Positions 18,537 through 39,194 of a stretch of 64,000 bases of DNA are shown here, piece after piece. The notes below the pieces were generated by a model. It was given only the letters and a program-made list of their open reading frames with translations, had not been told where the DNA came from and made no database searches. The first letter of the stretch is position 1; every line of letters starts with the position of its first letter. Position numbers and translations under genes: made by a program. This stretch comes from a virus: IMG/VR virus record IMGVR_UViG_3300019776_000919, positions 105,714-169,713 of that record; one strand, 5' to 3'.

Positions 18537-18785
18537 TTATTCTGCTCTAGGCTTATCTATTAACAAATGAATACCTTTAGCCATCCCGTATCCAACCGCC
18601 CCGCCAATAAGACCTTCTTTCGGTATTCTGGATATTTTCTGTAATAAGCTTTGATTCTTATAGAAAGGGTGGGTAGCTCCTACTACTGCTCCCGTAAGAC
18701 CTAGCGCGGTCGGGTTTAAAAAGCTTCTATCTGAAATCGGTCTACTAGGTTGATTCTCAGATATTTTAACCAGGTACTTATTCAT
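18537..18785 (-). CDS. small Gly-rich protein with MNKYLVKIS N-terminal tag
   Basis: Tag shared with other proteins; glycine-zipper segments. Confidence 0.75.
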   Translation of the reverse strand: MNKYLVKISENQPSRPISDRSFLNPTALGLTGAVVGATHPFYKNQSLLQKISRIPKEGLIGGAVGYGMAKGIHLLIDKPRAE

Positions 18786-18812
18786 AAGTAATCTTTGATA
18801 AAAAAATGAAAA

Positions 18813-19211
18813 TCAATACTTAGCATGATAATGATCCCCTAATAATTTTGTATATTTATTAGTGAAATCTTTATATGCATATTCATGGCTTGCCACAGGA
18901 TTGCCTAATTTAGCCATATCGCTGGCATATACATCATGTAAAGCTTTGTGATCTTTTTTCAATTCCGGACCATGGACTTTAGAAGTAATAGCGTCAAAAT
19001 ACGCTTGACCACTTATAGACTTACTTTTAGATTTCAATGAAAGTTGTTTTTTTACATTATCGTTATGTCTATTGAAATGCTCTACGTATAAATTGTGTGA
19101 GTCATTCATAAATCTGTTGACTCTATCTTTAACTAAAGCATAATCGACCTTAGGTTCTTCTTTTTTATTGGAAAACGTAATTCCTGCAATTTTTTCTAAA
19201 TATTTATTCAT
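18813..19211 (-). CDS. hypothetical protein with MNKYLEKIA N-terminal tag
   Basis: Tag; ATGA overlap with the upstream helicase gene. Confidence 0.8.
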   Translation of the reverse strand: MNKYLEKIAGITFSNKKEEPKVDYALVKDRVNRFMNDSHNLYVEHFNRHNDNVKKQLSLKSKSKSISGQAYFDAITSKVHGPELKKDHKALHDVYASDMAKLGNPVASHEYAYKDFTNKYTKLLGDHYHAKY

Positions 19212-20674
19212 GATTGATCTTTCATAACTTGTTTAATTTGGTCAAAAACAACTTGCTTATCATCGCTCATACCTGATAAGTATTTGTCTATTGATACCGG
19301 GGCTTTACCAAACATAGGCTTAGGATGAACACTTAGATAATGTTCAATGTCCATATGTCTTTCCTCTTTTGGCAAGTGTTCATGAGATTCATATCTAGCC
19401 CCTCGTCCAACTACTTGCTTTATCTTGCTAGGGTTAAAGTGGGGTTCGAGTACTTGAGTTAGTTTAGTACCTTTAAGATCAAGCCCCTCTGCACCGGAGC
19501 TGGATACTAAAAGAACCTTAACTTTACCTGAATTGTAATTCTTTACCGCCTCATCTTTCTCCGCTTGACTTAGCTTGCCAGAAAACACTACGTGAGGAAT
19601 ATCCTCTTCACTTAGTTTTTTAGCATATTCATGTACACCGGCATCTAAATAATTGCTATAGACAAGACCTTTAAAATTCTTATCCGAACCCATTTTTGTT
19701 TTAAGATTTTCAACAGCCTTCTTTATCTTGGGAGTGTACTCGACATTTTCTGTGTCTTGATGCAGGTGACGATGAGAGTTAGAGACTTGACGAACTCCCG
19801 TTGAGAACGAATTTAACTGGGCTTTTTCTTGTTTATCTAAAGGGAGGTTATTTCTAATTTTCATTCTAAGCCAGAAAGGTATTTGACCTTCCATAAACTT
19901 ATACATTCTTCCTTGTTCAGGAGACATGTCTACTTCTATTGTTTTAGAAGAAGTAGTTGGAAATTTAGACTTAGATTCTGGATCGTCTTTTACATCGTAA
20001 TAAGAAACGTGATCCTTAAACAGAGACCCTAATGCTTTCTTATTTCTAAGTACATCCACTTCTTTGGCGGGATGACGTAACAATACTTCCGCCAGACTTC
20101 TAGGTACTTTTTCTTTACCTAAAAAATGCTTTTCAAATTCTTTTCTATTCTCAGGTAAAACCTTGCCGCCATAAGCCATATTCATGATAGGCGCAATATC
20201 AGCAGCATGGTTGTAGTTAGCAGTAGCAGTAGCTAACACTCTTTTGTCAGCGTCTTGAAATATTTCAGATAAAGCTTGAGTTCTTTTAGTTTCAGTATTG
20301 CGAAGACGTTGTGCTTCGTCGGCAATAGCTAGTACGTATTTATTTTTCTTTAGTTCTGGAGCTATTCTGGTAGCTTTTTCGTAAGAGTAAACATCAAGTC
20401 TTTTACGATCAATTTTTAACTTGTGTTTTTTAATCTCCTTATCTACGTTACTAACTAAGCTAGCGGGGGCTACAACCAATACCTTACCATCTTTATTCTT
20501 GGCTTGAGCACGTTCAGCGGCAACTAAGAAGCCACGAGTTTTTCCAGAGCCCGTTCCCCAGTGTAAAACTACACCATCATTTTTTTCTAGCTTGTCTAAA
20601 GCAGCTTCTACATGAGGGCGTTCCTTTCTACTCTCGGGTTCTGACTTAGCAATTTTCACCAGGTATGGATTCAT
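19208..20674 (-). CDS. SNF2-like SF2 helicase with MNPYLVKIA N-terminal tag
   Basis: GTGSGKT, ADEAQ, ATAT, EGLDLK, QVVGRGAR. Confidence 0.88.
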   Translation of the reverse strand: MNPYLVKIAKSEPESRKERPHVEAALDKLEKNDGVVLHWGTGSGKTRGFLVAAERAQAKNKDGKVLVVAPASLVSNVDKEIKKHKLKIDRKRLDVYSYEKATRIAPELKKNKYVLAIADEAQRLRNTETKRTQALSEIFQDADKRVLATATANYNHAADIAPIMNMAYGGKVLPENRKEFEKHFLGKEKVPRSLAEVLLRHPAKEVDVLRNKKALGSLFKDHVSYYDVKDDPESKSKFPTTSSKTIEVDMSPEQGRMYKFMEGQIPFWLRMKIRNNLPLDKQEKAQLNSFSTGVRQVSNSHRHLHQDTENVEYTPKIKKAVENLKTKMGSDKNFKGLVYSNYLDAGVHEYAKKLSEEDIPHVVFSGKLSQAEKDEAVKNYNSGKVKVLLVSSSGAEGLDLKGTKLTQVLEPHFNPSKIKQVVGRGARYESHEHLPKEERHMDIEHYLSVHPKPMFGKAPVSIDKYLSGMSDDKQVVFDQIKQVMKDQS

Positions 20675-21534
20675 TTTTGTTTATTTTCTAATTCTTTATC
20701 AACGTCTATACCGGGAGCAATACCCCAATTAAGCAACGCTTGTCTTCTTTTAGGTTGAACAGAGAGATCTTGCAGGGTAGGGTCAGCTTTTTGTAATTGA
20801 GCTAAATGCCTGGCTTTAAAGCTAATCCAACGTTTCATCTGACGCTCATCGTCATCGGTCCTCTTACCTGCCACATACCCTTTGTACCATTGATACCAAC
20901 CTTGGGGGTGTTCTTGATTGTGCCACGTATCAGGCCATTTGTCTAGGCTAGCTCGTACCTTGAAAAAATTGCCAGAAGGATCCCCGTCATTGTACTGAGA
21001 CCCTTTATGAACCAACACCCCTAATCGTTGCATTTGATCAGGGGTTAAATCTGGACGAAACTTAGTCCGAACTTCCTCACTGGAAACTGCAATCTTAGTT
21101 AGATATTTGTTTGAGTTCATTGTCGCCTTTTTTTCTAAACCTAGGTTTTTAAACAACCAAGGCTTACCTTTACCATACTTTGTTTCATCCAATTTCTTTA
21201 ACAAAAACCGAGACCCGTCCTTAGTAGAGATAACCAATTTATCTTCATCATCTTGGGGTTCTACCGTAGCTTTACGCACCCAGTCTAGATAAGTTACACC
21301 ACCGCCATATTCACCTTTAGGTATAACTACTTTTTTACTTAAAGCGTATTCTCTATCATGGACAGGTTGCTCAAAAAGGAGTATTGATTTACCCGGCTCA
21401 GGAAGTTCTTTTTTAGTAGCCCATGAATATGCCTTATCGCCTAGGACCATTCTATAATCCCAATGTAATCCCATTCGGTCAGCTTCGTGTCTCTGACGAG
21501 TAAATAATATTTGTTGACCTGATAGAGGATGCAT
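20671..21534 (-). CDS. LigD-type 3'-phosphoesterase domain fused to a domain of unknown function
   Basis: QRHEA..LHWDYR..SWA..EQPVH N-domain; C-domain FRPDLTP..GWYQWY..DDERQMKRW; internal MNSNKYLTKIA at the junction. Confidence 0.75.
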   Translation of the reverse strand: MHPLSGQQILFTRQRHEADRMGLHWDYRMVLGDKAYSWATKKELPEPGKSILLFEQPVHDREYALSKKVVIPKGEYGGGVTYLDWVRKATVEPQDDEDKLVISTKDGSRFLLKKLDETKYGKGKPWLFKNLGLEKKATMNSNKYLTKIAVSSEEVRTKFRPDLTPDQMQRLGVLVHKGSQYNDGDPSGNFFKVRASLDKWPDTWHNQEHPQGWYQWYKGYVAGKRTDDDERQMKRWISFKARHLAQLQKADPTLQDLSVQPKRRQALLNWGIAPGIDVDKELENKQK

Positions 21535-25959: not shown

Positions 25960-27879
25960 ATGGAATTCTCAGACATCGCTTTGGCTAAGTTTTTGCAAGT
26001 TGCCCCGGAACTAGGCCCCTACATTCTTAACTTCTCAAAGATTAATGATGAAATGGGGGATGCTACTTCGGGAGTAGAAGTTGGTGTATTTATTCTCAAT
26101 ACCGGTTCCGGCCTAGCGTATGTGCCGGTTATTGGTAAGGGTGATACAGTATTCCCTATTGATTCTATTTTCCTAGAATCGGAATCTCTGTTTAGACCTT
26201 TGAGCCCTTCTAGTATTTCATACATAGTAAATACTGCATCAACAAGCTTAGGTAAAACTGTTAAGATTCCAGACACTGTTGACCAAAATCCAAGTTTGAT
26301 GAACATGATCAATCCTCCTAGGACTGGTAAGTTCATATACGCGTCCGCTAGTAGACTGCCAGAATTCCTAGCCGTTGTACCAGGAAACATCAGAAAAGCT
26401 CTGTTTGAAAAAATTGCATCCGAGCAAAGTGTTTACACTTCCCTGGATAAACTGTTTGGCCTCAAGGCTATTTTCTCTGTTCTCAATGGGGATCATGGCG
26501 GCTCCGGCGTAGCTAACAATGTTGCTTCCGGACCCGATGCAGTTAGAGTAAACAATCTTTCTGTAATCACCACACCTCAAGAAGTAAAAGCTCTTTTAAA
26601 TGACGCTGCTGCCAAAACTTTCTTGGATCAAGGCTATGTAATTCAAGGCGAACCTGGAGCTTTCAGAGCTGCCGTATCATACTTTCCGTATGATAAGATT
26701 GGTCAATACTTTAAGATTAATCCCGCATCAGACGGTGGAAAAGACTATAAGATTGCAATGGGTAATGGAGAGGTAAATACTGCTTTCATTCCTAAATACC
26801 ATTTGCTAAATCCCGTACCCTCTAAGAACTCTTTGGCTGCTGTATTTGCAGACGGTAGCTATGCTACTGGAGAAATGATTGCAGTTGGCGGACCTCTTCT
26901 AAAAGAAGATGTATTGAATTTAGTATTTTCACTAAACCCCCCGATCCTATTAAAAGAGTTAAATCAACAAGACAGATTCCTGATTTTTACTACCTCTGGA
27001 GAAGCATTAGGCCCCTTTACTGCTCACGGAGTTATTCGTACCAGCATGGGCGTTGAGATCAAAACTTATTCCGGTAAAGTAAAACGTATTTGTGGTTATA
27101 ATAATTTCACTAAAGAAGTTGATCAAGTAGGTGATACACTATTTGTACCCTTTAATGCAATCGTCCTTCCATTAAGAGAAGATGTCACGTTAGACCTAGA
27201 ACGAAGCATTAATGGGGCTTTAAACAAACAAGAACTTTGTGCATCACAACTATTGAGTCAGGAAATGAATCTCCGTTATGACGGAGTAGAGTTTTCAACT
27301 GACGACAGAGTCCTTGGTAAATTTGCCTCTGCTATGAAGTATCTAGTAGAGGGTGAGAATATTGAACCAGACGTAGCTAGCAATTTCCTGAAACAAGCTG
27401 AAGAAACTAGTTACTTGAAGATCTTCATGTCTAAGGAAGCATCTGCTGCTTCTACTGATTTCAAGCCAGCAGAAATTCCTCAGTATGGTACTTCGGCACC
27501 TATGGATCAACAAGTTGGTTTAAACGGGGCGCTAATCCCGTCAATACAATCATCAACTGCTTTAGGGGATTCTCAAGTAGTTGAATCAACTATTATTTCC
27601 CAACTGCTGCAAGTACCTGATTTATTTGAATATATTCAGGAATACTTGCCTGAACTAGAACAAACAGTTGATAGACTGGGTAGAATTCTATTCATGACTC
27701 GTGCTAAAATTGATCAAATTTCAGCGTCGTTGGATTCGGATTCTGTTTTCAGCATGATTTCTCAGATTAAAACAGTTTATCGCCAACTCGGAGATACTAC
27801 CTTGAAGCTCAAGGGTATGTCTAATATGGCAATCGGCTATAAGAGAGAAGACGCTGAGAATACACCTCAAGGCTCTTAA
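25960..27879 (+). CDS. putative head/core protein
   Basis: 639 aa ORF in the head block; FEKIAS, LGKFAS, MSKEAS motifs. Confidence 0.6.
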   Translation: MEFSDIALAKFLQVAPELGPYILNFSKINDEMGDATSGVEVGVFILNTGSGLAYVPVIGKGDTVFPIDSIFLESESLFRPLSPSSISYIVNTASTSLGKTVKIPDTVDQNPSLMNMINPPRTGKFIYASASRLPEFLAVVPGNIRKALFEKIASEQSVYTSLDKLFGLKAIFSVLNGDHGGSGVANNVASGPDAVRVNNLSVITTPQEVKALLNDAAAKTFLDQGYVIQGEPGAFRAAVSYFPYDKIGQYFKINPASDGGKDYKIAMGNGEVNTAFIPKYHLLNPVPSKNSLAAVFADGSYATGEMIAVGGPLLKEDVLNLVFSLNPPILLKELNQQDRFLIFTTSGEALGPFTAHGVIRTSMGVEIKTYSGKVKRICGYNNFTKEVDQVGDTLFVPFNAIVLPLREDVTLDLERSINGALNKQELCASQLLSQEMNLRYDGVEFSTDDRVLGKFASAMKYLVEGENIEPDVASNFLKQAEETSYLKIFMSKEASAASTDFKPAEIPQYGTSAPMDQQVGLNGALIPSIQSSTALGDSQVVESTIISQLLQVPDLFEYIQEYLPELEQTVDRLGRILFMTRAKIDQISASLDSDSVFSMISQIKTVYRQLGDTTLKLKGMSNMAIGYKREDAENTPQGS

Positions 27880-27887
27880 GATTAACA

Positions 27888-28529
27888 ATGGCACAAGTAC
27901 ATGCCAAATTTCTTTTAGTAAGACAAAAAACTACGGGGGTTGATGCCACCGTAGATGCAATTCTTTCTGGAAAACCAGAGGACAAAGATACTAGGGCTTT
28001 ATTTGATAAGGCCCGTAGTATTTATAATTCCCCGATTAAAAAAAGCTACGTAGAAGCTTGCTTAATGGCAACCACGGACATGGATAAGATAGGTGAACTA
28101 TTATCCATGTCAAGAGAGTTGTTAGAGATGTATAAAAACATCTTCTTTGACATAGAGGGTTATGACAAGCTAAGCTTGATGGAGGTAATTGAAAATGCCG
28201 ACTCTCCCGATGAAAAAGGAATGAAGATTTGGGCATTGAGTCAAGGCCTGGACTTCGTAGCTTGGAGACTTGGAAAAGCCGTTAGTATTAATCCTGTTGA
28301 AGGCTTGCAGGAATTATTTACCTTAGCTGTCTATAAGAGTAAGGAAGCTTTATTCTCAGGTAAAGATACTGAGGCTAGTAAAGCTGCTACTACTTGGACA
28401 AAACTGAGTATGGACTTAGCCCGTATTCTTAAAGCTTGGGTGTCAGACTCGGAAGCTGCTAAAGCTGATATTGAATTGGCTTTGAAATCTATTGACCCTG
28501 AATTCCAAGGGTTTGACTCCATACAATAA
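27888..28529 (+). CDS. hypothetical protein (head block)
   Basis: 213 aa ORF in operon. Confidence 0.7.
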   Translation: MAQVHAKFLLVRQKTTGVDATVDAILSGKPEDKDTRALFDKARSIYNSPIKKSYVEACLMATTDMDKIGELLSMSRELLEMYKNIFFDIEGYDKLSLMEVIENADSPDEKGMKIWALSQGLDFVAWRLGKAVSINPVEGLQELFTLAVYKSKEALFSGKDTEASKAATTWTKLSMDLARILKAWVSDSEAAKADIELALKSIDPEFQGFDSIQ

Positions 28530-28548
28530 AACTAATACTTATTAGGCC

Positions 28549-28561
28549 TACGAATTAAAAT
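28549..28561 (+). promoter_or_regulatory. + strand promoter-like motif TACGAATTAAAAT
   Basis: Motif copy ending 6 nt before ATG 28568. Confidence 0.6.
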
Positions 28562-28567
28562 CAACTT

Positions 28568-29635
28568 ATGGCAACTATTACCATTCAAGATCTACAAGAA
28601 ATCGCTGTGCAAGCCACTAGTGATTTTTTTAACAATCAAGTCCCTCTGAATCAATCCCTTGCTAAGCAGGCATCTGAGCGTGGACTTAATTCGGAACAGC
28701 TAAAAAGAGCTATTGAGACTACTAATACTTTGACTCATTTAAAGAGTATTGAAGTATCCAAGGATAGAACCGTAGAGTTTCCTGTTGCAGACTACACGTC
28801 AATTGTTAAAATGGCTTCAGTCCCTAATTTGACTGGCCCAGAAGACGAAGACGTACCTGACGGAGATGCTCACGGCTTCGTAGAAAAAGCAGCTTCTGCA
28901 GAAAGCATCCTAGCATACACTCCTCCTGATATGACGGAGAATGAGAAAATGTTGCATCTGCAGAAAGCTGCGCATATTAATAAAGTTGCTTTGGAAAACG
29001 CTCAAATTAATTTGAGAATTACCGGAGAAACTCTTCTAAAACAGGCTTTCGAACTAAGAAAAGACCCTCAGTTTATAGAGCATCTTTCAGCATCTTCTGC
29101 CGATAGTTTTCAATTTGAAAAGATTTCTACTCTTGTTTTAGGATCTATCGTTGATAGAAAAGATTACACAAACGGTATGTTTAAATCTGCTCAATTGAAT
29201 GAAGTAGAATCATTTGTTTCTCTTTACAAGCAGGCCAGTGAATTGACTTCTGAAATCAAAACCAGAAAGAATATGGACGAACGCTGGGAAATGATTAAAC
29301 AAGCTTCCATTTTAGGTTCTCTTGCTCAAGGGGTGGCTAAGTATACAACGAAAGCAGTGGTTGCCCCGGCTAAGTTAATGGGAAAAGCAATATCGGCTCC
29401 ACTAGTAGCAGGAGCCGGGGTTGTTGGAAGACGGGTTAACAATGCTATTGCCAGTACCGGTGCAGGCAAAGCCGCAGGATTCACACCTAAACCTACTAAC
29501 CCCGCGTTAGCTAAAAAAGTTATGGCTGTAGGAACTGGAGTAGGCATGGCAGCTATGGATGCCTCTGCTTTTGAGCCAAAATCTGATCCTATGGGGTATG
29601 GTCAAGGCCGTATCTGGGATAATCTACAAAGATAA
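28568..29635 (+). CDS. putative head core protein rich in K-x-A motifs
   Basis: LAKQAS, IVKMAS, VEKAAS, LYKQAS, MIKQAS; Gly/Ala-rich C-terminus. Confidence 0.65.
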   Translation: MATITIQDLQEIAVQATSDFFNNQVPLNQSLAKQASERGLNSEQLKRAIETTNTLTHLKSIEVSKDRTVEFPVADYTSIVKMASVPNLTGPEDEDVPDGDAHGFVEKAASAESILAYTPPDMTENEKMLHLQKAAHINKVALENAQINLRITGETLLKQAFELRKDPQFIEHLSASSADSFQFEKISTLVLGSIVDRKDYTNGMFKSAQLNEVESFVSLYKQASELTSEIKTRKNMDERWEMIKQASILGSLAQGVAKYTTKAVVAPAKLMGKAISAPLVAGAGVVGRRVNNAIASTGAGKAAGFTPKPTNPALAKKVMAVGTGVGMAAMDASAFEPKSDPMGYGQGRIWDNLQR

Positions 29636-29648
29636 ATTGAGAACAAAA

Positions 29649-30179
29649 ATGAACGAACAAATTCAAGAACTTTACGAATACGGCTTGGAAAAATACGCCG
29701 GAGATAAGACCGCTGCTAAAGATTTTGTAGTGGCTTTTATAAAAGAGGCTAGTGGTGCTGAAGTTGCTAAGCTGGGATGGAATACTGTAGGTAGATCTGC
29801 CCTACAAGCCTTGGGTGGAGCGTCGGTAGGTATTGGTGTAGGGTTAGGTATTCATGGGCTGTCTAGTATGATAAACGCCGCAGGTAATGCGGGTTTACAC
29901 GCTAAATTTAAAGAAGCTTTCAGTAAGGCTATCGCTATGAATCCCGTAGTTGCAGAGGGTCATAGATCAGAACCCGCTAAAGTAGATTCTTATGCGGAAA
30001 CCATTTTTAAGTTTGCTCCTCATGTTGCCTGTGATGCTAATTTACTAAGTACTGTTTTAGCTAATGCCGTACATGGTGAAAACGTAGATCCTACTATTAT
30101 TAAGTCTATTGTTGACCTAGAGTCCAAGCTTATCGAGACTCGTAAAAATTCTTTATTCACTCCTAAAACCTATCTATAA
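29649..30179 (+). CDS. putative head core protein with glycine zipper
   Basis: Start moved to ATG 29649 to avoid overlap; LEKYAG, FIKEAS; GGASVGIGVGLGIHG. Confidence 0.65.
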   Translation: MNEQIQELYEYGLEKYAGDKTAAKDFVVAFIKEASGAEVAKLGWNTVGRSALQALGGASVGIGVGLGIHGLSSMINAAGNAGLHAKFKEAFSKAIAMNPVVAEGHRSEPAKVDSYAETIFKFAPHVACDANLLSTVLANAVHGENVDPTIIKSIVDLESKLIETRKNSLFTPKTYL

Positions 30180-30180
30180 A

Positions 30181-30444
30181 ATGGACAAGTCTAGCAAGTT
30201 ACTAGATTGGGCTGAAAAGTCCATCACTGAACTTAAGAATATGCCTATTCATAATAAGATAGGGTTAGGATTAGGCGTAACTTCACTTGGGCTAGGGTTA
30301 GTAAACTACCATAATAATAAAGTTAAATTAGATATGGATAAAGCAAGAATTGATCTAGATAAAGAGAGAGTTAATTTAGATATGAAATCCCTTTCTGCTT
30401 TACAAAAAATCCACAAAGCTTTATCAAAAAAATCTAACATCTAA
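30181..30444 (+). CDS. small protein with Gly-rich hydrophobic segment and coiled coil
   Basis: IGLGLGVTSLGLGL; repeated LDxDKxR. Confidence 0.7.
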   Translation: MDKSSKLLDWAEKSITELKNMPIHNKIGLGLGVTSLGLGLVNYHNNKVKLDMDKARIDLDKERVNLDMKSLSALQKIHKALSKKSNI

Positions 30445-30452
30445 ATTACCCC

Positions 30453-31976
30453 ATGTTAAAACTTATAGACATAGACTCTTCTTTCTTCAATGAAGAGCCT
30501 GTGGTTAGAATTATAAACACTGATTCTAATTTTCCATTGGAGAAGACTGCAGCTGATTCTAGGATAAATACTTTTATCTCCGATCTTAAACCGGAACAAG
30601 ATAAAATATACGTCCACATTTTAGCTATGGGGGCTGGGGAATACTTTGGGGCTAATAGAAATGCAGACTATTTCCCTGAAGATAATCTTATCAAATGGCA
30701 TGATACATTTAGAACGTCTCCTGCGCATATCTTTAAGCATCACATAAATAAAAATCCTGAGATTGCTATTGGTAAGGTCATTTTTTCCGTATACAACGAA
30801 AGAATGCACAGAGTAGAAGTTATTGCTTGGATTGATAAGAAAAAAGGATGGGATGTAGTTGATAAAATCGAGAGGGGTGAGTTCCCTGCTACTTCAATGG
30901 CGTGCCATACTCCGTATGATACTTGCTCTATTTGTGGAAACAAAGCTAGATCTCGTAATGAATATTGCTCTCATTTAAGAGGTGAACTGGGTAAAGTCCA
31001 TCCTACTGGTGAAAAAACCATGGCCATCAATGATGGAGCCCTTAAGTTTTTTGATATGTCAGTAGTATTTAAACCTGCAGATGTTACTAGTAGTGTATTA
31101 CAAAAAGTTGCTTATGCTGATCAATCTATTACCGGTTCTGCAGAGTCTGCGGAAATGATGGGTTTAGGTGAAAAAACTACTGAACTTAAAAAGTTAAGTT
31201 CGATGATTAAAGAGATTGAAGGAACTATGATCAATTCCTCAGACTCTTTAAAAGCAATCTTAGACAAAGTTAAGGACCCAGAAGAAGAAGTAATTTCTCT
31301 TTTAGAAGATTTAGAACTTGATCACGTAATTCATGCATTTGCAGAATTAGGCATCTCACCGTCTGTAGGGTTTTTTGCTAAGTTAATCGGTAGAAAAATT
31401 TGTGGCGAGGATGTCGCCGGAATAGAGACGTTAGTAAAAGGTTTAATTCAAGTAGACGGTGATAAGGTACATGTACCGGAACAAGGTCTTTCTAAAGTTG
31501 CATCTACCTATGAAGTAAACCATGCAATTTCTATACTGTCGCCTATGACTAAACAATGTTCTATTTTCCCAGACATTGTTATGCAAAGAGAGCTGGAAAA
31601 TTCAAACCCTGGATTTATACATCAAAGCGGGTTGGATTATATGAATTCTTCCAATGTAGGATATATCGGTAATGGACCTTATCCTGCTGCAGACCCTAGA
31701 AAAACATATTTACATTTGAGAGACGTTTACAGAGAGAAAAACTCAGATGGCTCTAGTATTTTGAAAACTTTATTTACTATCGGTGGCGCAGCAATAGCCG
31801 CTAAATGGCTAGTGTCGAAACTTATCGAAAGTAAAATGCAGGAACTTAGAGAAGAAATTCGCAAAGATAATTCTTCCCCAGTTAAAATAGTATTAGTTAA
31901 ATCGGCTGAACAAGCTTTCACTACTCAACAATTAGTTAAAGCATCCCTCTTGAATAGTTTAAAAACTGGGTTATAA
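30453..31976 (+). CDS. prohead (maturation) protease with Zn-finger insertion
   Basis: NRNADYFP, FKHH.N, TSMAC..CSICGN..YCSH, FFDMSVVFKPAD; lies upstream of scaffold and capsid genes. Confidence 0.75.
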   Translation: MLKLIDIDSSFFNEEPVVRIINTDSNFPLEKTAADSRINTFISDLKPEQDKIYVHILAMGAGEYFGANRNADYFPEDNLIKWHDTFRTSPAHIFKHHINKNPEIAIGKVIFSVYNERMHRVEVIAWIDKKKGWDVVDKIERGEFPATSMACHTPYDTCSICGNKARSRNEYCSHLRGELGKVHPTGEKTMAINDGALKFFDMSVVFKPADVTSSVLQKVAYADQSITGSAESAEMMGLGEKTTELKKLSSMIKEIEGTMINSSDSLKAILDKVKDPEEEVISLLEDLELDHVIHAFAELGISPSVGFFAKLIGRKICGEDVAGIETLVKGLIQVDGDKVHVPEQGLSKVASTYEVNHAISILSPMTKQCSIFPDIVMQRELENSNPGFIHQSGLDYMNSSNVGYIGNGPYPAADPRKTYLHLRDVYREKNSDGSSILKTLFTIGGAAIAAKWLVSKLIESKMQELREEIRKDNSSPVKIVLVKSAEQAFTTQQLVKASLLNSLKTGL

Positions 31977-32031
31977 TTCAGTCAATTTAGTTAAGAATAA
32001 TCTAAACAGAAAACCAAGGATAAAAAATAAA

Positions 32032-33969
32032 ATGGATCTAACTCTTGATCAACTGCTAGCTAGTTTTGAAACTGGCATGCAAAAATCAGCGTCGGAAGGC
32101 GAAGATAAGAAAGAAGAAGCTAAAGACGAGAAAAACGAATTCCCCTTCAAAAAGAAGGATGAAGAAGTTTCAGAAAAGTCTGAAGAAAAAAAGGACGAAG
32201 ATGAGTCTAAAGATGAATCCGAAGGCCAAGAAAAAGAAGCTTCACTAGCTGGTGCCGCTTTGGCTCGTGAAGTAATGCAAAAAGTAGCATCACTCAACCT
32301 GGACAATGGAATGAATAAACAAGCCTCAACCGCCGGTCAAGCACTGGCTCGTGCCCTTCTAAAGAAGGCCTCTGCTGGAGACGTATCTACGACAAACGGC
32401 ATTACCTCGGAAGCTGTTCCGAATAAGTCTCAAGTAGACAACGCTGAAATGGAAGCTGAAGGCGCTGCTGCTATTAAGGCCCTGCCTACTGGCGACGGCG
32501 TACGTAACTACGGAACCGTTAATGAGATTTTTGATGCGATGATTCAAGACGCTCTTGCACAAGGCGCTGCTTCAACTGATCAAGTTCATGAGCGTGGCGT
32601 TGCTAAGAATGAAGGTGCTGTTCTGGAACATGCTGTTCCGAATCAAATCAAAGTTGCCGCTATGAACGCCCTGATGCAAGGTGGTTTTGATTTTGACACT
32701 GCTGCCCAACTCTTGAAGTCTGCCGAAAGAAACGATCATAAAATTGAAGGATATATTTCCCCCGCTTGGCAAGAAAATGCCATTGCTAAGGACCACGGTA
32801 AAGAAGGCCTTAAGGGCGTAGGCGCTAATGTAAGTAAACACATTACCGGAGGCCTTAGAGTAGCTGGACGGGGATATCTAGAAGGTTTTGGCGGCAGCGT
32901 TGCCGGAGGTCTAATAGGCCAAGCTGTTGGGCTTGCAGGTAAAAATGCCCATGCTGTTAGAACCGGAACAAGTGTCGGAGCTACTTTAGGTGGACTTGGC
33001 GGCTTGGCTCATGGCGTTTATTCCTCTCTGAAAAACCAAGCTGATGAAGCCCATAAGAAGTATGCTTCAGAACAAGACCAATCGCAAGACGAAATCGAAA
33101 AGGCCGCCGCCATTTCCCATCTGGTCGCTAATGGCGTTAATTTTGACGACGCTTTTGAAATGGTTAAACAAGCCGAAGCTGAAATTGCTTTTGAAATGGA
33201 AAAAGCCGCTTGTCTGGAAACCCTGATCAATGAAGGTGTAGATTATGATTCAGCCGTTGAGTTGGTTAAGCAAGCTGCTGCTGGTGATCTGAACACTACT
33301 GATGGTGTTAATCCTGGCTCGGTTCCTAATAAGAACCAAGAAGACAACGCTCAGATGGAAGCCGAAGGCGCTGCTACGGTAAAGCCGCTGCCCACTGGTA
33401 ACGGTATTGCTGCTCAAGGTAATGTAAACCAAATTTTTGACGCCATCGTAGATGATGCTCTGGCTCAAGGCGCTGCTTCAAGTGACCAAGTTCACGAGCG
33501 TGGTGTATCGAAAGCCGAAGGTGCTGTAGAAGCTCATGCCGTTCCTAATCAGGTTAAGGTCGCTGCCATGAATAAGCTGTTGGAAGCCGGTGTTGATTTT
33601 GAAAAAGCTGCTGAAATTGTTAAGCAGGCTGGTGCCGCTGCAATTCCCAGTTTTCTCACCAAAGTAAGAGGCAACGCCATTAACGCTGTCAAAGATGCTA
33701 AGGCCCTAGTTGGAGCTGGTCCTAGCCGGTTCCCGATGGCTCCGGATTCAAAAGGCATGATCCGTCCTTTGAAGAGAGACAGTGCAATGGGATTGGTTAA
33801 GAATCCTGTGGTTCAAGCTGGAGCTGCTACCGCCGCTGCCGGTGCCGGCGCTGCTGCCCTGAGTCGTGAAAAGAAAGCTGCCGTCGATATGCTGACGGAA
33901 GCCGGTATTGACTTTGACTCAGCTGTAAGCTTGGTTAATGAAAAGGCCGCTGAACTGTACGGTGAGTAA
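32032..33969 (+). CDS. scaffold/core polyprotein-like protein with internal repeats
   Basis: Acidic N-terminus, ~17 K-x-A/S motifs, 117 aa duplication. Confidence 0.65.
   Translation: MDLTLDQLLASFETGMQKSASEGEDKKEEAKDEKNEFPFKKKDEEVSEKSEEKKDEDESKDESEGQEKEASLAGAALAREVMQKVASLNLDNGMNKQASTAGQALARALLKKASAGDVSTTNGITSEAVPNKSQVDNAEMEAEGAAAIKALPTGDGVRNYGTVNEIFDAMIQDALAQGAASTDQVHERGVAKNEGAVLEHAVPNQIKVAAMNALMQGGFDFDTAAQLLKSAERNDHKIEGYISPAWQENAIAKDHGKEGLKGVGANVSKHITGGLRVAGRGYLEGFGGSVAGGLIGQAVGLAGKNAHAVRTGTSVGATLGGLGGLAHGVYSSLKNQADEAHKKYASEQDQSQDEIEKAAAISHLVANGVNFDDAFEMVKQAEAEIAFEMEKAACLETLINEGVDYDSAVELVKQAAAGDLNTTDGVNPGSVPNKNQEDNAQMEAEGAATVKPLPTGNGIAAQGNVNQIFDAIVDDALAQGAASSDQVHERGVSKAEGAVEAHAVPNQVKVAAMNKLLEAGVDFEKAAEIVKQAGAAAIPSFLTKVRGNAINAVKDAKALVGAGPSRFPMAPDSKGMIRPLKRDSAMGLVKNPVVQAGAATAAAGAGAAALSREKKAAVDMLTEAGIDFDSAVSLVNEKAAELYGE
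32374..33630 (+). repeat. 351 bp in-frame duplication (32374-32724 and 33280-33630)
   Basis: AGD..T.G...VPNK.Q.DNA.MEAEGAA...DALAQGAAS.DQVHERGV...HAVPNQ.KVAAMN occurs twice. Confidence 0.9.
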
Positions 33970-34002
33970 TTTGGAAGACCTGGGAAACTAGGTCTTTTAA
34001 AA

Positions 34003-34542
34003 ATGACTAACAAGTACATTACTAAAATCGCATCTCACGGGATCTCTGATAAAGTCAGGGATCCTGATTTAGCTCGTGCCGCTGGAAAAGGCTTTTTATA
34101 CGGGTCTGTCGGATCTGCTATTGGAGCCAGGGGCGGCGGACTGACTTCTTTGATTGGTGCCGTTGCAGGCGGATATCATGGATATAAGTCTTCTTTAAAG
34201 AACCAGCTCAAAGATCAACAACTCCATGACATTAAACTTCAGGGGGCGGCTCAACGGCAAGAACTCCATGAAGCTAAAATGCATAAGATGGCGGAAGAAA
34301 AAGATCCCCGCAAAGGTTTAAAAGAAGCCATCAACGTCGGTACTATTGCAGGGTTGGGTGGATTGGCTACTTTTGGTGCAGCTAAAGCTACAAACAAATT
34401 ACTGCCGGTAATTGCAAAAAAATTCCCCAAGGTAACTCATAATGGTCTGTTGACCGGACTGGGTACTATCGGTGGTTTGGCTGCAGATTACGCAGGGCTT
34501 AAAATCGGTGATGCAACTAACAAACACATAGACAAATTATGA
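34003..34542 (+). CDS. Gly-rich putative internal virion protein with MTNKYITKIA tag
   Basis: Tag; two glycine-zipper modules separated by MHKMA. Confidence 0.7.
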   Translation: MTNKYITKIASHGISDKVRDPDLARAAGKGFLYGSVGSAIGARGGGLTSLIGAVAGGYHGYKSSLKNQLKDQQLHDIKLQGAAQRQELHEAKMHKMAEEKDPRKGLKEAINVGTIAGLGGLATFGAAKATNKLLPVIAKKFPKVTHNGLLTGLGTIGGLAADYAGLKIGDATNKHIDKL

Positions 34543-35132
34543 AACTGTCAACACTACTATACAAACAAGCTCAAGAGCTTCGCACTCAATCCACAGAATA
34601 TGTGGCGGTTGATCTTCTGAAAAAGGCTGGCATGGATGAAACTCAAGCCAGATTTGAAGTAGCTCAAAAGCTGATGGAAAAAGAAGCTACTGACTATTTG
34701 GTTAACTCTGGGATTGATTATGACACTGCATTGGAAATGGTTAAGATTGCCAACGTCAATGTAAAAGAGTTGGCTTCATTTAAAGTGGAGCCTTCGGAAG
34801 AAGAAGTTCTTTCTTTGAATATTGAAAAAGCTGCCGGGTTAGCAAAAGAGTTGGAAGAAAAGGTTGCTGACTATGATTCCCTGTTGGAAAAAGTAGCTCA
34901 ACTGGAAGCTCAATTGGCCGATAAACCGGAAGTTGAAACTGTATCTGAACCAATGCAGAAGTTTGCTAAGTCAGGTGCGTTTACAAATGAAGATTTGGAA
35001 GCCCTTAGAAAGCTTTCTACGGAAACCTTATCTAAAGTAGCATCATTGTCGGAACAGCCTTGGTCTTTAGGTAAGTCAGATCATTCAGATGTTGAATCAT
35101 TAGATCCGCTTGCTCAATTCTGCTTAAGCTAA
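34539..35132 (+). CDS. coiled-coil scaffold-like protein rich in K-x-A motifs
   Basis: Shares the EKxA..L...GIDYD.A..MVK.A module with 32032..33969. Confidence 0.65.
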   Translation: MKLSTLLYKQAQELRTQSTEYVAVDLLKKAGMDETQARFEVAQKLMEKEATDYLVNSGIDYDTALEMVKIANVNVKELASFKVEPSEEEVLSLNIEKAAGLAKELEEKVADYDSLLEKVAQLEAQLADKPEVETVSEPMQKFAKSGAFTNEDLEALRKLSTETLSKVASLSEQPWSLGKSDHSDVESLDPLAQFCLS

Positions 35133-35134
35133 AA

Positions 35135-35383
35135 ATGAATAAGTATTTACTAAAAATAGCAAGTATGTGGACTTCGGGGGAGACAGTATCTCCTCCGAAT
35201 CCTCATGTATTCAACCCGTCTTCTCCTCATTATGCACCTAGAGTGGCTAGAAGATCAGCTCTTCTAAAGGGGGCCGGAGGGTTAGCTGCAGGGCTTGGAG
35301 CTGGATATTTAGCAATAAAAGCTCTTAATCATTCTTCTGATCAAAACAACCAATATCAAGACTACTCTCAGTATGGCCAATAA
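35135..35383 (+). CDS. small protein with MNKYLLKIA tag
   Basis: Tag; GAGGLAAGLGAG glycine zipper. Confidence 0.75.
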   Translation: MNKYLLKIASMWTSGETVSPPNPHVFNPSSPHYAPRVARRSALLKGAGGLAAGLGAGYLAIKALNHSSDQNNQYQDYSQYGQ

Positions 35384-35702
35384 ATACCTAGAGAAAATTG
35401 CTCTTAATAAGTTTGAACAAAAAGTATCATCTGGGATTATCTCCAATGATCCTCGTGTTCAAGCAGTCGCTTCTAAACTAGAAGACTCTAAGAAGTTTTT
35501 ATCTAAATATCCGCATTCCCATGTAAATGAGTTAGTGGATCTACATAAAGACTTTAGTCCAGTAAGAGAAGCACGGGGTAAGTATCGTTCTGCATTAGGA
35601 TCAAACCCGGTTACTCACTTTAAAAACGTGGGTGATAGCTTGGCTCATGGAGCCCCTAGTATTGCTAAGAAGCTTTCTTTTTTAGCTAGAGTACGTGGAT
35701 GA
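35373..35702 (+). CDS. small protein with MANKYLEKIA tag
   Basis: Tag; overlaps both neighbours. Confidence 0.75.
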   Translation: MANKYLEKIALNKFEQKVSSGIISNDPRVQAVASKLEDSKKFLSKYPHSHVNELVDLHKDFSPVREARGKYRSALGSNPVTHFKNVGDSLAHGAPSIAKKLSFLARVRG

Positions 35703-36193
35703 ATCGGTACCTTGAAAAAATAGCATTGAATAGGTTTGAGCAGTATTTAGCTGCTCAGCCTAAAGATCGTATTTTCAAAAACCAACAAGTTCAAAAGACT
35801 TATAACTCTGTTCAGAAATCAGAGCAACTAGGTAGAATTGGTCATAAGATGAATTCTCTCGGTGGAGCCGGAGATAATTATCTAAAGCAATCTAGAGATG
35901 AACTTAGAAATAGCCGTGGTAAATTTGGAGTTTGGGATAAGGAAACTCAACCCAATAGAGCTTTTAAAAAACCAGAAGACGTAGCAGCTAAGAATGCTAA
36001 AAAACCCGTTATAGATAAACGTATCAAGGCTCCTAAATTTGATCCTTTAAAACGTTTAGCTGAGTCTGAATATAGGTACAAGCCTATAGTAAGAACTCCA
36101 GCTAGTAAAGGGATGAAAGCCCTGGCTGCATTAGCTGCTGCTGGTGGGGCTGGATTAATTGGTTACGGAATAAAGAAAAATATAACGGAATAA
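35699..36193 (+). CDS. basic protein with MNRYLEKIA tag
   Basis: Tag; C-terminal ALAALAAAGGAGLIGYG. Confidence 0.75.
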   Translation: MNRYLEKIALNRFEQYLAAQPKDRIFKNQQVQKTYNSVQKSEQLGRIGHKMNSLGGAGDNYLKQSRDELRNSRGKFGVWDKETQPNRAFKKPEDVAAKNAKKPVIDKRIKAPKFDPLKRLAESEYRYKPIVRTPASKGMKALAALAAAGGAGLIGYGIKKNITE

Positions 36194-36289
36194 CAATTCT
36201 GTATTAAAATACCTAATATAGAATACAGAAGTTGAAATAGTTCAACTTCTATCTAAAAATAACTCTTCAACACAAAGGATATTTATAAC

Positions 36290-36706
36290 ATGAAGATGGA
36301 ATATACAGCCCAGATTCTGAGAGGTTGGCCTTATGAAGGTGCCCTCGACAGAGCTGAGACCATCAAGACCGGCGTTTCGCTGGTTAACGGCGACTGGGTA
36401 CAAAAACAATCAGACGGAACTATCGATAAGGTAAGTTCCACCAAGACCGCTAATGCTGGTCTAGTCATCCGTGGTAACACAGACAGCACTTCTGGTGTAA
36501 CAACCGGTAAGGCTACTGTTCTGTGGGGTAACTTCATTGCTCAAATCAAGACCGCTACCGTGTTTACGCCAGGCGCTGCCCTGACCGCACAAAACGGTGT
36601 TCTGGTTGCTGGCACTGTCGGTACTGATCCTATCATTGGCTACGTTTTGGACGTTATCGCTTCGAGCGCTACGACCGATGCTAGCGTTGTTGTTAAGATC
36701 AACTAA
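36290..36706 (+). CDS. putative capsid decoration/cement protein
   Basis: 138 aa beta-rich ORF directly before the capsid gene; biased codons. Confidence 0.6.
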   Translation: MKMEYTAQILRGWPYEGALDRAETIKTGVSLVNGDWVQKQSDGTIDKVSSTKTANAGLVIRGNTDSTSGVTTGKATVLWGNFIAQIKTATVFTPGAALTAQNGVLVAGTVGTDPIIGYVLDVIASSATTDASVVVKIN

Positions 36707-36725
36707 TCCGGAGGAAATTTAAAAA

Positions 36726-37643
36726 ATGTCATACAATACTGAAACTACTAACGTTCAATTCATGAACCAGAGCTTCCTCCAGAAGATCGACCAAGGCATG
36801 ACCAAAGAAGCTGGCGTTGCCATGACGGCGTTTGTTCGTCAAAAGCTGCGTGAAGACGCCTTCGTTCGTAAGATTCTGCCTTTCCAATCAGTAACTGCTG
36901 CTGAACTGGATCGTCAGACTGACGAAGAGCCCACCATCATCTGCGAAAAAGAACCTGACTCAGTTGCGGCTACCCTGCCGTTCCTGGCTCGTGCCCCGAT
37001 TCGTTACTGGACTGGTCCTCGTTACAAGGTAAACTTCCAGAAGCTGTCGTCAGATGACTTCCGTAAGTCAAAGTTTGAACTGATGACCTATCGTACGGAC
37101 ATCCGTACCGTTCTGCAAGAGAACTCGATCAAGGACATTCAAGAGCAAGAAGACTATGGTTTCTACCAGAATCTGCTGGCTATTGCTGCCAACAACACTG
37201 CTATCGGTGCCACTAACACCTACAGCATCTCTGGTTTCTCGAAGGCTAACTACCTGACAGGTATCAAGAAGCTGCTGGAAAGACGCCTGCCGGTTGGCTG
37301 TGTTCTGATGAGCCAGTCGCTGTACAACGACATGCTAGCCTTCCAGTCGACCGATATCGGTTCGCCTGCTGCCAGCTCACTGTTCATGGGTGAAGCCCAA
37401 CTGCAAGCCCCGTTCGGCTACAAGGTCATCACGACCAACAAGTCGACCGCTGCTAACAGCTTCTTCCCCACCAACAGAATGATCGTTTTTGCACCGCCTC
37501 AGTTCCTGGGTCAAGCGTTTTCGCTGCAAGATGCGACCGTATTCCTCAAAGCTGAGCTGGATATGATCGAATTTACGGCTTACGAATCAATCGGTATCGG
37601 CCTGGGCAACACCCAAGGTTTCGTTATCATCGACTTCGTCTAA
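36726..37643 (+). CDS. major capsid protein (HK97-like fold inferred)
   Basis: Position after protease, scaffold and decoration genes; SD GGAGG; strongest codon bias; terminator follows; KLRED.F.RKIL and IQEQED patterns. Confidence 0.75.
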   Translation: MSYNTETTNVQFMNQSFLQKIDQGMTKEAGVAMTAFVRQKLREDAFVRKILPFQSVTAAELDRQTDEEPTIICEKEPDSVAATLPFLARAPIRYWTGPRYKVNFQKLSSDDFRKSKFELMTYRTDIRTVLQENSIKDIQEQEDYGFYQNLLAIAANNTAIGATNTYSISGFSKANYLTGIKKLLERRLPVGCVLMSQSLYNDMLAFQSTDIGSPAASSLFMGEAQLQAPFGYKVITTNKSTAANSFFPTNRMIVFAPPQFLGQAFSLQDATVFLKAELDMIEFTAYESIGIGLGNTQGFVIIDFV

Positions 37644-37694: not shown

Positions 37695-39194
37695 TCATTT
37701 CAAAATTAAAACCCAGCGATCTTGACCGCAATCTTTGATTTTGAAATAACCATTTTTGTACATAATTTCAGATTCAGTCATTTCTTTCGGATATTTTTCT
37801 TTAAAGATATCTTCTAGCTTATGGCGTTGAAATGAAACTCTATTGAAACGTCTTTGACCCTTGCACCAAAAGTATCCAGGCTGACTGGAGCTAGAATAAG
37901 CAAAACCATTTTTCCAGTATACACCTCCAATACTCCATCTTCTATCGGAATAAGATACTATTCTTTTAGGGTTTTGATTTCTAATGAAGTGTTTAAGTAA
38001 CTTAGAAAATCCACCTATTACTGAAGTACTGGTTGAATACCTAAGCAGTTCATAACAATCTTCTTCTTGGTCTTCAAATCTAAACTTAGAAAAAGTCATG
38101 CATCCCACGAGATTATTTTCGTAGAATAGTCCGTACCTGAACGAAGAAGAATATGCATGCCCTTGAATATGATTGTTCGATTCAAACTCTTTAACAACTT
38201 GATTAGTGAGTTGTTTTATTTCACATTTTCTCGCAAAGACTTTCTTTGTCGAAGTTAGTATAGAACGGAGTTTGTTTTTGATAATGTCTTGTTTTTCAAG
38301 CCACTCATCTTCTAATACATGGATTATTCTGATCCCTGCTTTTAAATAAGATTCTGTTTTTTCAAACAAAGAATTTGAAGATGCCATGGCCCCTTCAAAC
38401 TTATCCCATTTAGAAGAAGGATCTCTGTGGAAGAATAATCCATTATATTCTATACCCAGGCTCAGTGAAGGAATGTATATATCCAATTCCATTTTTAAGC
38501 CTTCTACTGGTTTTACTCTACTAATAGCATCTGGCCTCAGGCCCTTTATAAATTCGAAGATTTCCAGCTCCGGACTGGATTTTCTAGTCAAAGAACAATG
38601 AGAGCATCTTTTACCGCTTAGGTAGTCCCCGGGCCTAATCATATAGGATCCGTGAACTTTACAATTAATTTCCGATAGTGTTTTACTGCTTACGTACTTT
38701 GTATTTTCAAAAGTATCGAGGCCAATATGAACAGAAGAAGCTTTTTCGATAAAATCATTGATGTCATCTGCTTGATCTTTAGCTCGTTTTTTAATGTTAC
38801 ATTTCGAGCAAAGAAATCTTCTTTTTTTTGAGATTACAGAAATTGGTTGCGTAGAAAAATCACCGTGTTCCTTACATGTAATATTTACGTATGTATGGGA
38901 ATCTACGTATGACACTTTGCTATAGCTACAATTCATCCAAGTATCCGGATAAATCTGTTTAATTTCTTCTATAAATGACTCGGTATTTCTCTTAGCACTT
39001 ATAGCGCATTGCCCGCAAGCAATACCATTTTTCCTAGTTACGTTTTTAAACGTACGAGTAACTTCGCCATGACGGGGGCAAATTACTATTGATTCGGAGT
39101 ACGACCCGTTATATGTAAACTTTGAGAAGTCATATTCAGGCCACATAGCCTTCATTTTTGAAATGGCTTCTTCGGGTTTTATTTTTATAGGCAT
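37695..39194 (-). CDS. homing-endonuclease-like protein: three C..HG..C..C repeats, PD-(D/E)xK domain, C-terminal GNAT/Mom-like domain
   Basis: CPRHG, CKEHG, CKVHG repeats; ELDIYIP..GIEYNG.FFH; YELLRY..GGFSKLL..SYSDRRWS.G.VY..GF. Confidence 0.7.
   Translation of the reverse strand: MPIKIKPEEAISKMKAMWPEYDFSKFTYNGSYSESIVICPRHGEVTRTFKNVTRKNGIACGQCAISAKRNTESFIEEIKQIYPDTWMNCSYSKVSYVDSHTYVNITCKEHGDFSTQPISVISKKRRFLCSKCNIKKRAKDQADDINDFIEKASSVHIGLDTFENTKYVSSKTLSEINCKVHGSYMIRPGDYLSGKRCSHCSLTRKSSPELEIFEFIKGLRPDAISRVKPVEGLKMELDIYIPSLSLGIEYNGLFFHRDPSSKWDKFEGAMASSNSLFEKTESYLKAGIRIIHVLEDEWLEKQDIIKNKLRSILTSTKKVFARKCEIKQLTNQVVKEFESNNHIQGHAYSSSFRYGLFYENNLVGCMTFSKFRFEDQEEDCYELLRYSTSTSVIGGFSKLLKHFIRNQNPKRIVSYSDRRWSIGGVYWKNGFAYSSSSQPGYFWCKGQRRFNRVSFQRHKLEDIFKEKYPKEMTESEIMYKNGYFKIKDCGQDRWVLILK

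Follow-up and report, generated by a model that had tools for sequence, protein, structure and literature searches.

The head proteins encoded in the last 64 kb (the window) of a 169,713-bp contig of an uncultured phage from IMG/VR, which carries direct terminal repeats, are saturated with a five-residue motif in which a hydrophobic residue (φ) is followed by x-Lys-x-Ala. This motif is probably recognised and cleaved by the prohead protease that the phage itself encodes (30453-31976), with the cut most likely falling after Ala; this reading draws on sequence, structure models and analogy. The motif is far more frequent in the head proteins than expected from their composition, it is kept at fixed positions across related phages and it lies at places known from the substrates of other prohead proteases.

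Genes are named here by the window position at which they start. The head module is co-directional on the + strand, with genes for structural proteins (25960, 27888, 28568, 29649 and 30181), then the protease (30453) and scaffold-like proteins (32032 and 34539); it also encodes small proteins (34003, 35135, 35373 and 35699), a 138-amino acid protein (36290) and the 305-amino acid capsid protein (36726). Among ten head proteins, the protease (phrog_18299) and the capsid protein (phrog_2522) matched PHROGs and the other eight did not, nor did nine of ten further proteins. None of the ten head proteins matched Pfam at E ≤ 0.01, all hits being sub-threshold noise.

A scan of IMG/VR with a single sequence reached one relative, and a profile of four protease sequences was needed to find the others. 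The profile gave 80 loci on contigs of up to ~185 kb, and 82 related loci were analysed. Cultured relatives are Salmonella phage Arash and Vibrio phages D69, D148 and D181 (41 to 48% identity, same gene order). The order of structural proteins, protease, scaffold-like proteins, small proteins and capsid protein is kept in Arash, D69 and the IMG/VR loci.

Enrichment of the motif in the head module

The strict motif, [LIMVFY]-x-K-x-A, was counted in each protein, and [LIMV]-x-K-x-A was used for the shuffle test on the head genes, in which Lys and Ala content was corrected for by 1000 residue shuffles within each protein. A sequence-only reading of this DNA, which had proposed a protease of K-x-A specificity, had named such a corrected test beforehand as the check that could overturn it. 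The proposal clearly withstood it: head genes 28568-36193 contain 40 copies against 6.2 expected, and the other ~210 genes of the 169.7-kb genome contain 74, with 50 expected. Significance is highest genome-wide for 28568, 32032 and 34539, whose counts none of 1000 shuffles equalled, and is also high for the protease (P = 0.001), for 35135 and for one protein that lies outside the window. The sheath candidate (56404-58602, phrog_1480) has no copy at all, in agreement with the earlier remark that the sheath shows no such density.

Strict copies number four in 25960, nine in 28568, three in 29559/29649, five in the protease (LEKTA at residue 29, VFKPA at 205, LQKVA at 216, LSKVA at 346 and LVKSA at 481), 11 in 32032, eight in 34539 and one in the capsid protein. 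All sites quoted in the sequence-only reading are present where it placed them, and its counts of about eight each in 28568 and 34539 and of several in 25960 and 29649 are borne out. The figure of about 17 that it gave for 32032 falls between the strict count and the 20 copies obtained if any K-x-A is accepted.

In a control run, φ-x-K-x-A gave z = 13.3 (47 copies, 9.2 expected), against ratios of 0.6 to 1.7 for φ-x-R-x-A, φ-x-E-x-A, φ-x-K-x-S/G/E, the reversed motif and wider spacings. Partly overlapping forms were weaker (φ-K-x-A, 2.8-fold; φ-x-K-A, 2.4-fold). The shuffles, together with the residue-swap and re-spaced controls, rule out a composition artefact, and the same motif controls rule out an artefact of helical periodicity. 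In an unbiased scan of residue pairs at spacings of one to four, K.A, M.K, K..S and L.K came out on top for the head proteins only. Of the established rules, neither that of T4, [LI]-x-E (1.1-fold), nor that of herpesviruses, [VLI]-x-A-[ST] (13 copies, 10.7 expected; 1.2-fold), shows enrichment in the head proteins, and that of phiKZ, [SAG]-x-E, is slightly depleted (0.79-fold). Motifs of these three types are thus ruled out as the head-protein signal.

An excess of the motif, 2.8- to 5.8-fold, was present in each of the 82 related loci, down to protease identities of 33 to 36%.

Conserved sites and their placement

Sixteen sites are conserved in position across the relatives. Lys has a frequency of 0.90 at these sites (Arg 0.01), as does Ala (Ser and Gly 0.01 each); the hydrophobic residue is Leu (0.47), Met (0.20), Phe (0.13) or Ile (0.11). 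At the two x positions residues vary as much as in the flanks, and the proteins that bear the sites are only 25 to 47% identical. The residue after Ala is Ser (0.32), Ala (0.15) or Gly (0.14) at 61% of the conserved sites. As a control, two chance copies in a piece of RNA polymerase β' (50% identical) were followed, and they are kept in only one and four of 38 orthologues. As judged from these alignments, selection acts on the motif itself, since Lys and Ala are kept at fixed sites and the x positions are free in proteins of such low identity, and the chance copies in RNA polymerase are lost.

The protease gene (30453-31976, +) encodes a 507-amino acid precursor with an N-terminal propeptide, a protease domain (residues ~44-221; 30582-31115, +) and a C-terminal part that may be scaffold-like or a tether. 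It matches phrog_18299 (head maturation protease, 3e-9) and phrog_2774 (7e-19). However, no match to Pfam Peptidase_S77/S78 was found at E ≤ 0.01 and a search of PDB sequences with the protease profile was empty, so the protease is placed by modelled fold rather than by sequence, as a divergent lineage. The AlphaFold2 (AF2) model covers residues 1-260 (predicted local distance difference test, pLDDT, 76.6; core blocks 85 to 95). Its best match in the PDB is T4 gp21 (5jbl; Z 11.3, root-mean-square deviation 3.0, 132 residues aligned), followed by the proteases of varicella-zoster virus, pseudorabies virus (PrV), herpes simplex virus, human cytomegalovirus, Kaposi's sarcoma-associated herpesvirus and Epstein-Barr virus (Z 7 to 10.4). 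These Z-scores come from VIA realignment, Foldseek alone being weak for this protein (E 5e-3). On the model, then, the protease has the fold of T4 gp21 and the herpes assemblins. The domain limits follow the invariant columns in 40 homologues and the range of the structural alignment (44-208/221). His97 and Ser148, 51 residues apart, are invariant in these 40 homologues, in gp19 of Bacillus phage G and in gp94 of mycobacteriophage Catera, and are presumably the catalytic pair. An insertion resembling a zinc ribbon (Cys3-His; C158, C161, C172 and H174) is also invariant out to phage G gp19 and Catera gp94. It lies at 30903-30977 (residues 151-175), with C151 nearly invariant, and T4 gp21 (165 residues) aligns without it.

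Three of the protease sites are conserved (a hyphen marks the predicted cut). LEKTA-A (residues 29-33; 30537-30551, +), upstream of the protease domain, is kept in 55 of 59 orthologues, with Lys and Ala each at 0.98. LQKVA-Y (residues 216-220; 31098-31112, +) directly follows the last strand of the domain, as a release site would, and is kept in 53 of 59. LVKSA-E (residues 481-485; 31893-31907, +), 22 residues before the C-terminus of the precursor, is a candidate analogue of a maturation site; it is kept in 33 of 59, and its K-S-A is invariant in a four-sequence alignment within an otherwise variable tail. The sequence-only reading had listed these three among the sites flanking the protease domain, together with LSKVA at residue 346. 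The last of these is present and is kept in only two of 59 orthologues; VFKPA at residue 205 is kept in six. As both are poorly conserved, they are probably not cleavage sites.

The major capsid protein (36726-37643, +), of 305 amino acids, is assigned by phrog_2522, by 48% identity to the annotated capsid protein of Arash and by an AF2 model with an HK97 fold. A search of PDB sequences with this protein was empty. The model (pLDDT 79.8) matches encapsulins (Z 15 to 16.3) and HK97 gp5 (Z 14.2 to 15.4) over residues ~26-305, and the two sets of scores, within one Z unit, are tied. MTKEA-G, which the sequence-only reading had noted near the N-terminus, is found at residues 25-29 (36798-36812, +), where one predicted helix (3-22) breaks off and the next (26-44) begins. 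In 57 orthologues, conservation is 0.95 for Lys and for Ala alike; the strict motif is kept in 47 of the 57, and only the hydrophobic position changes in the exceptions (to His or Gln). Two related loci (L080 and L081) were considered as having capsid proteins without a propeptide, which was ruled out since SLTKNA is kept in frame upstream of the first ATG. Alignments with HK97 gp5 start at model residues 26-30, just after the motif.

The scaffold-like protein 32032 (32032-33969, +) is an acidic, Ala-rich polyprotein of 645 amino acids with ten [LIMV] copies against 1.84 expected (0 of 1000 shuffles). Self-BLAST revealed a duplicated module of 123 residues (64% identity over 123 residues, E = 5e-54). 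Copy 1 (residues 109-231; 32356-32724, +) starts at LLKKA and ends at LLKSA, and copy 2 (residues 411-533; 33262-33630, +) starts at LVKQA and ends at IVKQA. Of 22 copies of the module in the relatives (one or two per protein), 19 have the motif at both predicted ends and three at one end. The second scaffold-like protein, 34539 (34539-35132, +), is helical, 197 amino acids long and carries its eight sites every 19 to 28 residues (0.51 expected). The sites at 95, 116 and 164 are kept in 26 to 28 of 28 orthologues. The last, LSKVA-S (residues 164-168; 35028-35042, +), is kept in all 28 and is followed by a conserved tail of ~30 residues (PWxMG...DPLxxFxxS).

The 355-amino acid protein 28568 (28568-29635, +) has all nine sites (0.80 expected) within residues 1-246, ahead of a C-terminal part that is hydrophobic and rich in Gly and Ala. 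Six of the nine are kept in 22 to 31 of 38 orthologues, and the product is likely to consist of a propeptide and an internal protein. Similarly, 29649 (29649-30179, +) has LEKYA and FIKEA near its N-terminus (kept in 21 and 19 of 29 orthologues, Lys 0.93 to 0.97), ahead of a Gly-rich hydrophobic part. The 639-amino acid structural protein 25960 (25960-27879, +) has a conserved site, FLKQA-E, at residues 476-480, kept in 31 of 32 orthologues at a mean identity of 0.34. The proteins detected by mass spectrometry in Arash virion preparations include its orthologue, gp218.

The motif also forms the last five residues of a longer N-terminal tag with the consensus N-K-Y-L-E-K-I-A. A six-frame scan of the whole genome with Y-[LIMV]-x-K-[IVL]-[AS] gave eight matches, seven of them N-terminal copies, three to five residues after Met, and one at an internal boundary. 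Those on the + strand are MTNKYITKIA-S on a 179-amino acid protein (34003-34032), MNKYLLKIA-S on an 82-amino acid protein (35135-35161), which has a second site, LLKGA-G, at residues 43-47, MANKYLEKIA-L on a 109-amino acid protein (35373-35402) and MNRYLEKIA-L on a 164-amino acid protein (35699-35725). The other four lie on the - strand (18759-21120), outside 25960-37643. These are N-terminal MNKYLVKIS (starting at 18785), MNKYLEKIA (19211) and MNPYLVKIA (20674, on a 488-amino acid protein), and MNSNKYLTKIA (21120-21088), which lies at a domain boundary inside the open reading frame (ORF) 20671-21534. With three N-terminal tags and one at a domain boundary, this minus-strand operon suggests that enzymes are packaged as capsid cargo and that the fusion protein (ORF 20671-21534) is split by processing.

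The relatives have 116 N-terminal copies of the tag. In 99 distinct tags, Asn (0.90), Lys (0.69), Leu (0.91), Glu (0.81), Ile (0.74) and Ala (0.95) are conserved, and conservation stops exactly there. The residue that follows is most often Ser (0.25), Ala (0.19), Gly (0.12) or Glu (0.12). A dual role of this longer tag, in targeting and cutting, is plausible.

Several further features of the genome were noted. Gly/Ala-rich hydrophobic segments with GxxxG-like patterns follow the last predicted site in the proteins encoded at 28568-29635, 29649-30179, 34003-34542 and 35135-35383, whose mature products could, to judge from these segments, be membrane-active ejection proteins. Position 9193-10083 (+) of the whole-genome record, outside the window and ~9 kb past the record start, encodes a protein of 296 amino acids with nine φ-x-K-x-A sites (six of the [LIMV] form, 0.7 expected). 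It has no PHROG match, exceeds every other protein outside the head module in enrichment and may be a further processed head or internal protein. In the window, 60269-63814 (+) encodes a protein of 1181 amino acids, also without a PHROG match, with three LVK[AT]A sites at 103, 151 and 185 (0.5 expected); its N-terminal 190 residues look like a propeptide on a large virion protein. Adjacent paralogues of 432 and 469 amino acids (28437-29735 and 29740-31149 of the whole-genome record) both have LQKVAQ at residue 48, perhaps as a propeptide boundary common to the two. On the opposite strand, immediately behind the capsid gene, 37695-39194 (-) encodes a Cys-rich protein of 499 amino acids and breaks the structural block.

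Proposed cleavage model and probable scissile bond

The motif is read as the cleavage signal of the 30453 enzyme because its placements reproduce the known programme of T4, in which gp21 processes its own ends as well as the scaffold, core, capsid and internal proteins, in each case at L/I-x-E (PMC9026906); SPN3US and phiKZ follow a similar programme with AXE (PMC10052503). Here the sites flank the protease domain, mark off a short capsid propeptide, fill the scaffold-like proteins and end a shared tag, all as in known substrates of prohead proteases. From these placements and the modelled fold we infer that the sites are cut, that the 30453 enzyme cuts them and which bond it opens; a specificity different from the Glu rule, as the sequence-only reading had proposed, is supported by the enrichment, the positional conservation and the fold as well.

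In the proposed mechanism, the protease precursor, scaffold-like 32032 and 34539, the propeptide-bearing 28568, 29649, 34003, 35135 and others, and the tagged cargo would co-assemble inside the shell of the 305-amino acid capsid protein. The protease would then free itself at residues 29-33, 216-220 and near its C-terminus (481-485), the scaffold-like proteins would be chopped into pieces of 20 to 120 residues, and the N-terminal tags and the first 29 residues of the capsid protein would be removed. Each cut would fall between Ala and a small residue, with a hydrophobic residue at P5, Lys at P3, Ala at P1 and Ser, Ala or Gly at P1', a bond of the Ala-Ser type. A cut after Ala is favoured because Ala is the last conserved residue of the tag, the duplicated modules start downstream of the motif's Ala, and the residue that comes after this Ala is preferentially Ser, Ala or Gly.

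Several points weigh against this model. The fold match of the protease does not reveal its specificity pockets, and the capsid site lies within the first turn of a predicted helix. The capsid protein of phage G is without the motif and its head proteins are weakly enriched (K.A 25, 14.6 expected), and Catera gp94, with the same protease domain, lacks the flanking sites. The sole virion proteomics on a relative, Arash, gives protein-level coverage of 116 proteins and is silent on processing; the Arash paper and its supplements contain no peptide-level data and name no proteomics deposit. Finally, in T4 and phiKZ the P3 residue is hydrophobic or small and the defining residue is P1, so that, by analogy, φ-x-K could occupy P3 to P1, with the cut after Lys (PMC9026906, PMC10052503).

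That last point is the basis of an alternative in which enzyme and signal are the same and the scissile bond follows Lys, with a hydrophobic P3, Lys at P1 and Ala at P2'. The geometry would be that of T4 L/I-x-E with the opposite charge at P1, and the mature capsid protein would start at Glu28 instead of Gly30. The P3-x-P1 triplet read by T4 gp21 and by phiKZ/SPN3US, with its hydrophobic or small P3, fits φ-x-K (PMC9026906, PMC10052503), and Lys is kept as strictly as Ala (0.90 each) with Arg excluded. However, a strictly invariant Ala at P2' would be unusual, tag conservation spans both Ile and Ala and ends right after Ala, and the duplicated modules start directly after Ala. The small residue that follows Ala (61% at conserved sites) is what would be expected for P1' of a cut of the Ala-Ser type. 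A cut after Lys is therefore considered unlikely, if the best placed of the alternatives.

Slightly less likely again is a motif that serves for docking or capsid targeting and is never cut, with the scaffold, the inner surface of the capsid or the C-terminal part of the protease binding it so as to load proteins into the prohead. Compared with the internal sites, the N-terminal tag is conserved at additional positions (N, K, Y, L and E), a feature that points to a role over and above simple cleavage. The capsid-targeting sequence of T4 has separable targeting and processing determinants (PMC9026906), and encapsulins, whose cargo is loaded via short peptides, are among the structures that the capsid model matches best (tied with HK97, within one Z unit). 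However, the eight to 11 copies in the scaffold-like proteins at spacings of 20 to 30 residues fit processing better, as do the copies on both flanks of the protease domain, in the capsid N-arm and at the bounds of the duplicated modules. Targeting and cutting are also compatible, since the T4 sequence does both.

Cleavage of the sites by a different protease, from host or phage, is very improbable. Nothing specific speaks for it, beyond the fact that the link between enzyme and substrate rests on gene neighbourhood and analogy. Against it, the excess accompanies a 30453-type gene in all 82 loci, sites flank the enzyme's own catalytic domain as far as phage G, and PHROG and Pfam searches showed no other protease in the head module. 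A functionless by-product of Lys/Ala-rich amphipathic helices or repeated domains can be all but dismissed, for although the proteins are helical and rich in Lys, Ala and Glu, and a ~22-residue repeated unit ending in VKQA contributes part of the count in 32032 and 34539, the controls do not reproduce the excess, the i, i+2, i+4 spacing is not helical and the motif sits at fixed columns of unrelated proteins whose neighbouring columns vary.

Comparison with known capsid proteases

Cleavage by the 30453 enzyme after Lys-x-Ala would belong to a familiar kind of enzyme and processing logic. Searches for a prohead-protease motif of Lys/Ala type returned work on T4, phiKZ and SPN3US and no description of such a motif; a Lys-x-Ala specificity, with dozens of sites in one head module and a spread over ~80 loci with traces in phage G, was not found described. 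The mapped specificities of T4-type prohead proteases that were found (T4, phiKZ and SPN3US) all end in Glu. If the reading is right, the specificity of this fold is more plastic than thought.

The phage shares with T4 the protease fold (gp21, Z 11.3) and a short degenerate motif with multiple copies in scaffold and core proteins, a single copy close to the N-terminus of the capsid protein and copies at the ends of the enzyme. In both, a tag on unrelated cargo ends in the motif. The tag has nine to 11 residues here, and the capsid-targeting sequence of T4, which ends at a gp21 cut, has ten (PMC9026906). If the Lys-x-Ala rule holds, the tag would be a candidate means of directing foreign proteins into capsids. 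In contrast to T4, the signal here is φ-x-Lys-x-Ala, without Glu, and the protease has no Pfam S77/S78 match, a Cys3-His insertion and a C-terminal extension of ~290 residues; the capsid propeptide is just 29 residues long.

SPN3US gp245 and phiKZ gp175 cut S/A/G-x-Glu ('AXE'), and the protease processes itself C-terminally (PMC10052503, PMC9026906). As predicted for the present phage, these have large virions and many processed internal or ejection proteins, mostly with N-terminal propeptides that bear several motif copies (PMC10052503, PMC9026906), and a split multisubunit RNA polymerase is also present here. The motif differs, and the capsid protein here, at 305 amino acids, is much smaller.

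In phage G, gp19 (annotated as head maturation protease) has a protease domain 30% identical to that of 30453, with the Cys3-His insertion, and its flanking sites LVKTAA and LEKVAS align with LEKTA-A and LQKVA-Y. Further copies are MAKQAA at residue 16 of the portal, gp14, and LKKTA at residue 8 of gp20. Unlike here, the motif does not saturate the head proteins, and the capsid protein that is without it is gp27. No cleavage information was found in the phage G multi-omics paper. In Catera, the same protease domain heads gp94 (L085:7342-11451), a phrog_2774-type protein of 1369 amino acids without flanking K-x-A sites, and specificity thus probably differs in that branch.

Closest are Arash, D69, D148 and D181, which share the syntenic head module, the motif saturation and the capsid site G-L-[VT]-K-E-A-G, and differ in that the scaffold-like protein after the protease has 255 to 269 amino acids, compared with 645 here. 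The cultured Arash and D69, with phage G, make the Lys-x-Ala rule directly testable. In this large and almost unannotated clade, in which most head-module proteins are without a Pfam or PHROG match, a true rule would make mature virion proteins, propeptides and injected cargo predictable from sequence.

Herpes assemblins cut Ala-Ser/Thr bonds in two places, the release site, which immediately follows the protease domain, and the maturation site, close to the C-terminal end of the scaffold (PMC4498786); the PrV sites are YLQA-T and VQA-S (PMC4498786). The assemblins (UL26/UL80a family) share with the 30453 protease the fold (Z 7 to 10.4) and the predicted cut after Ala and before a small residue. 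The layout is also shared, with a protease domain, an adjoining site, a scaffold-like part and a site ~20 to 30 residues from the C-terminus. In addition, the last site of 34539 stands ahead of a conserved tail, like the maturation site before the capsid-binding tail (PMC4498786). The hydrophobic residue is at P3 in herpesviruses, whereas here P3 would be Lys and P5 hydrophobic, and herpesviruses have two to few sites as against dozens in this phage. If true, the rule would be a phage counterpart of the herpesvirus Ala-Ser rule. More tentatively, and with rather less than even confidence, a lineage-wide rule of Ala before a small residue with Lys at P3, held by Arash-like phages of 120 to 190 kb and reduced in megaphage G, may constitute a third specificity class among capsid proteases of the gp21/assemblin fold; N-K-Y-L-E-K-I-A would then act as a transferable tag by which enzymes of any kind, such as a phosphoesterase or an SNF2 motor, enter the capsid and are later injected, and the rule would be the closest phage counterpart of herpes Ala-Ser cleavage, down to analogues of the release and maturation sites.

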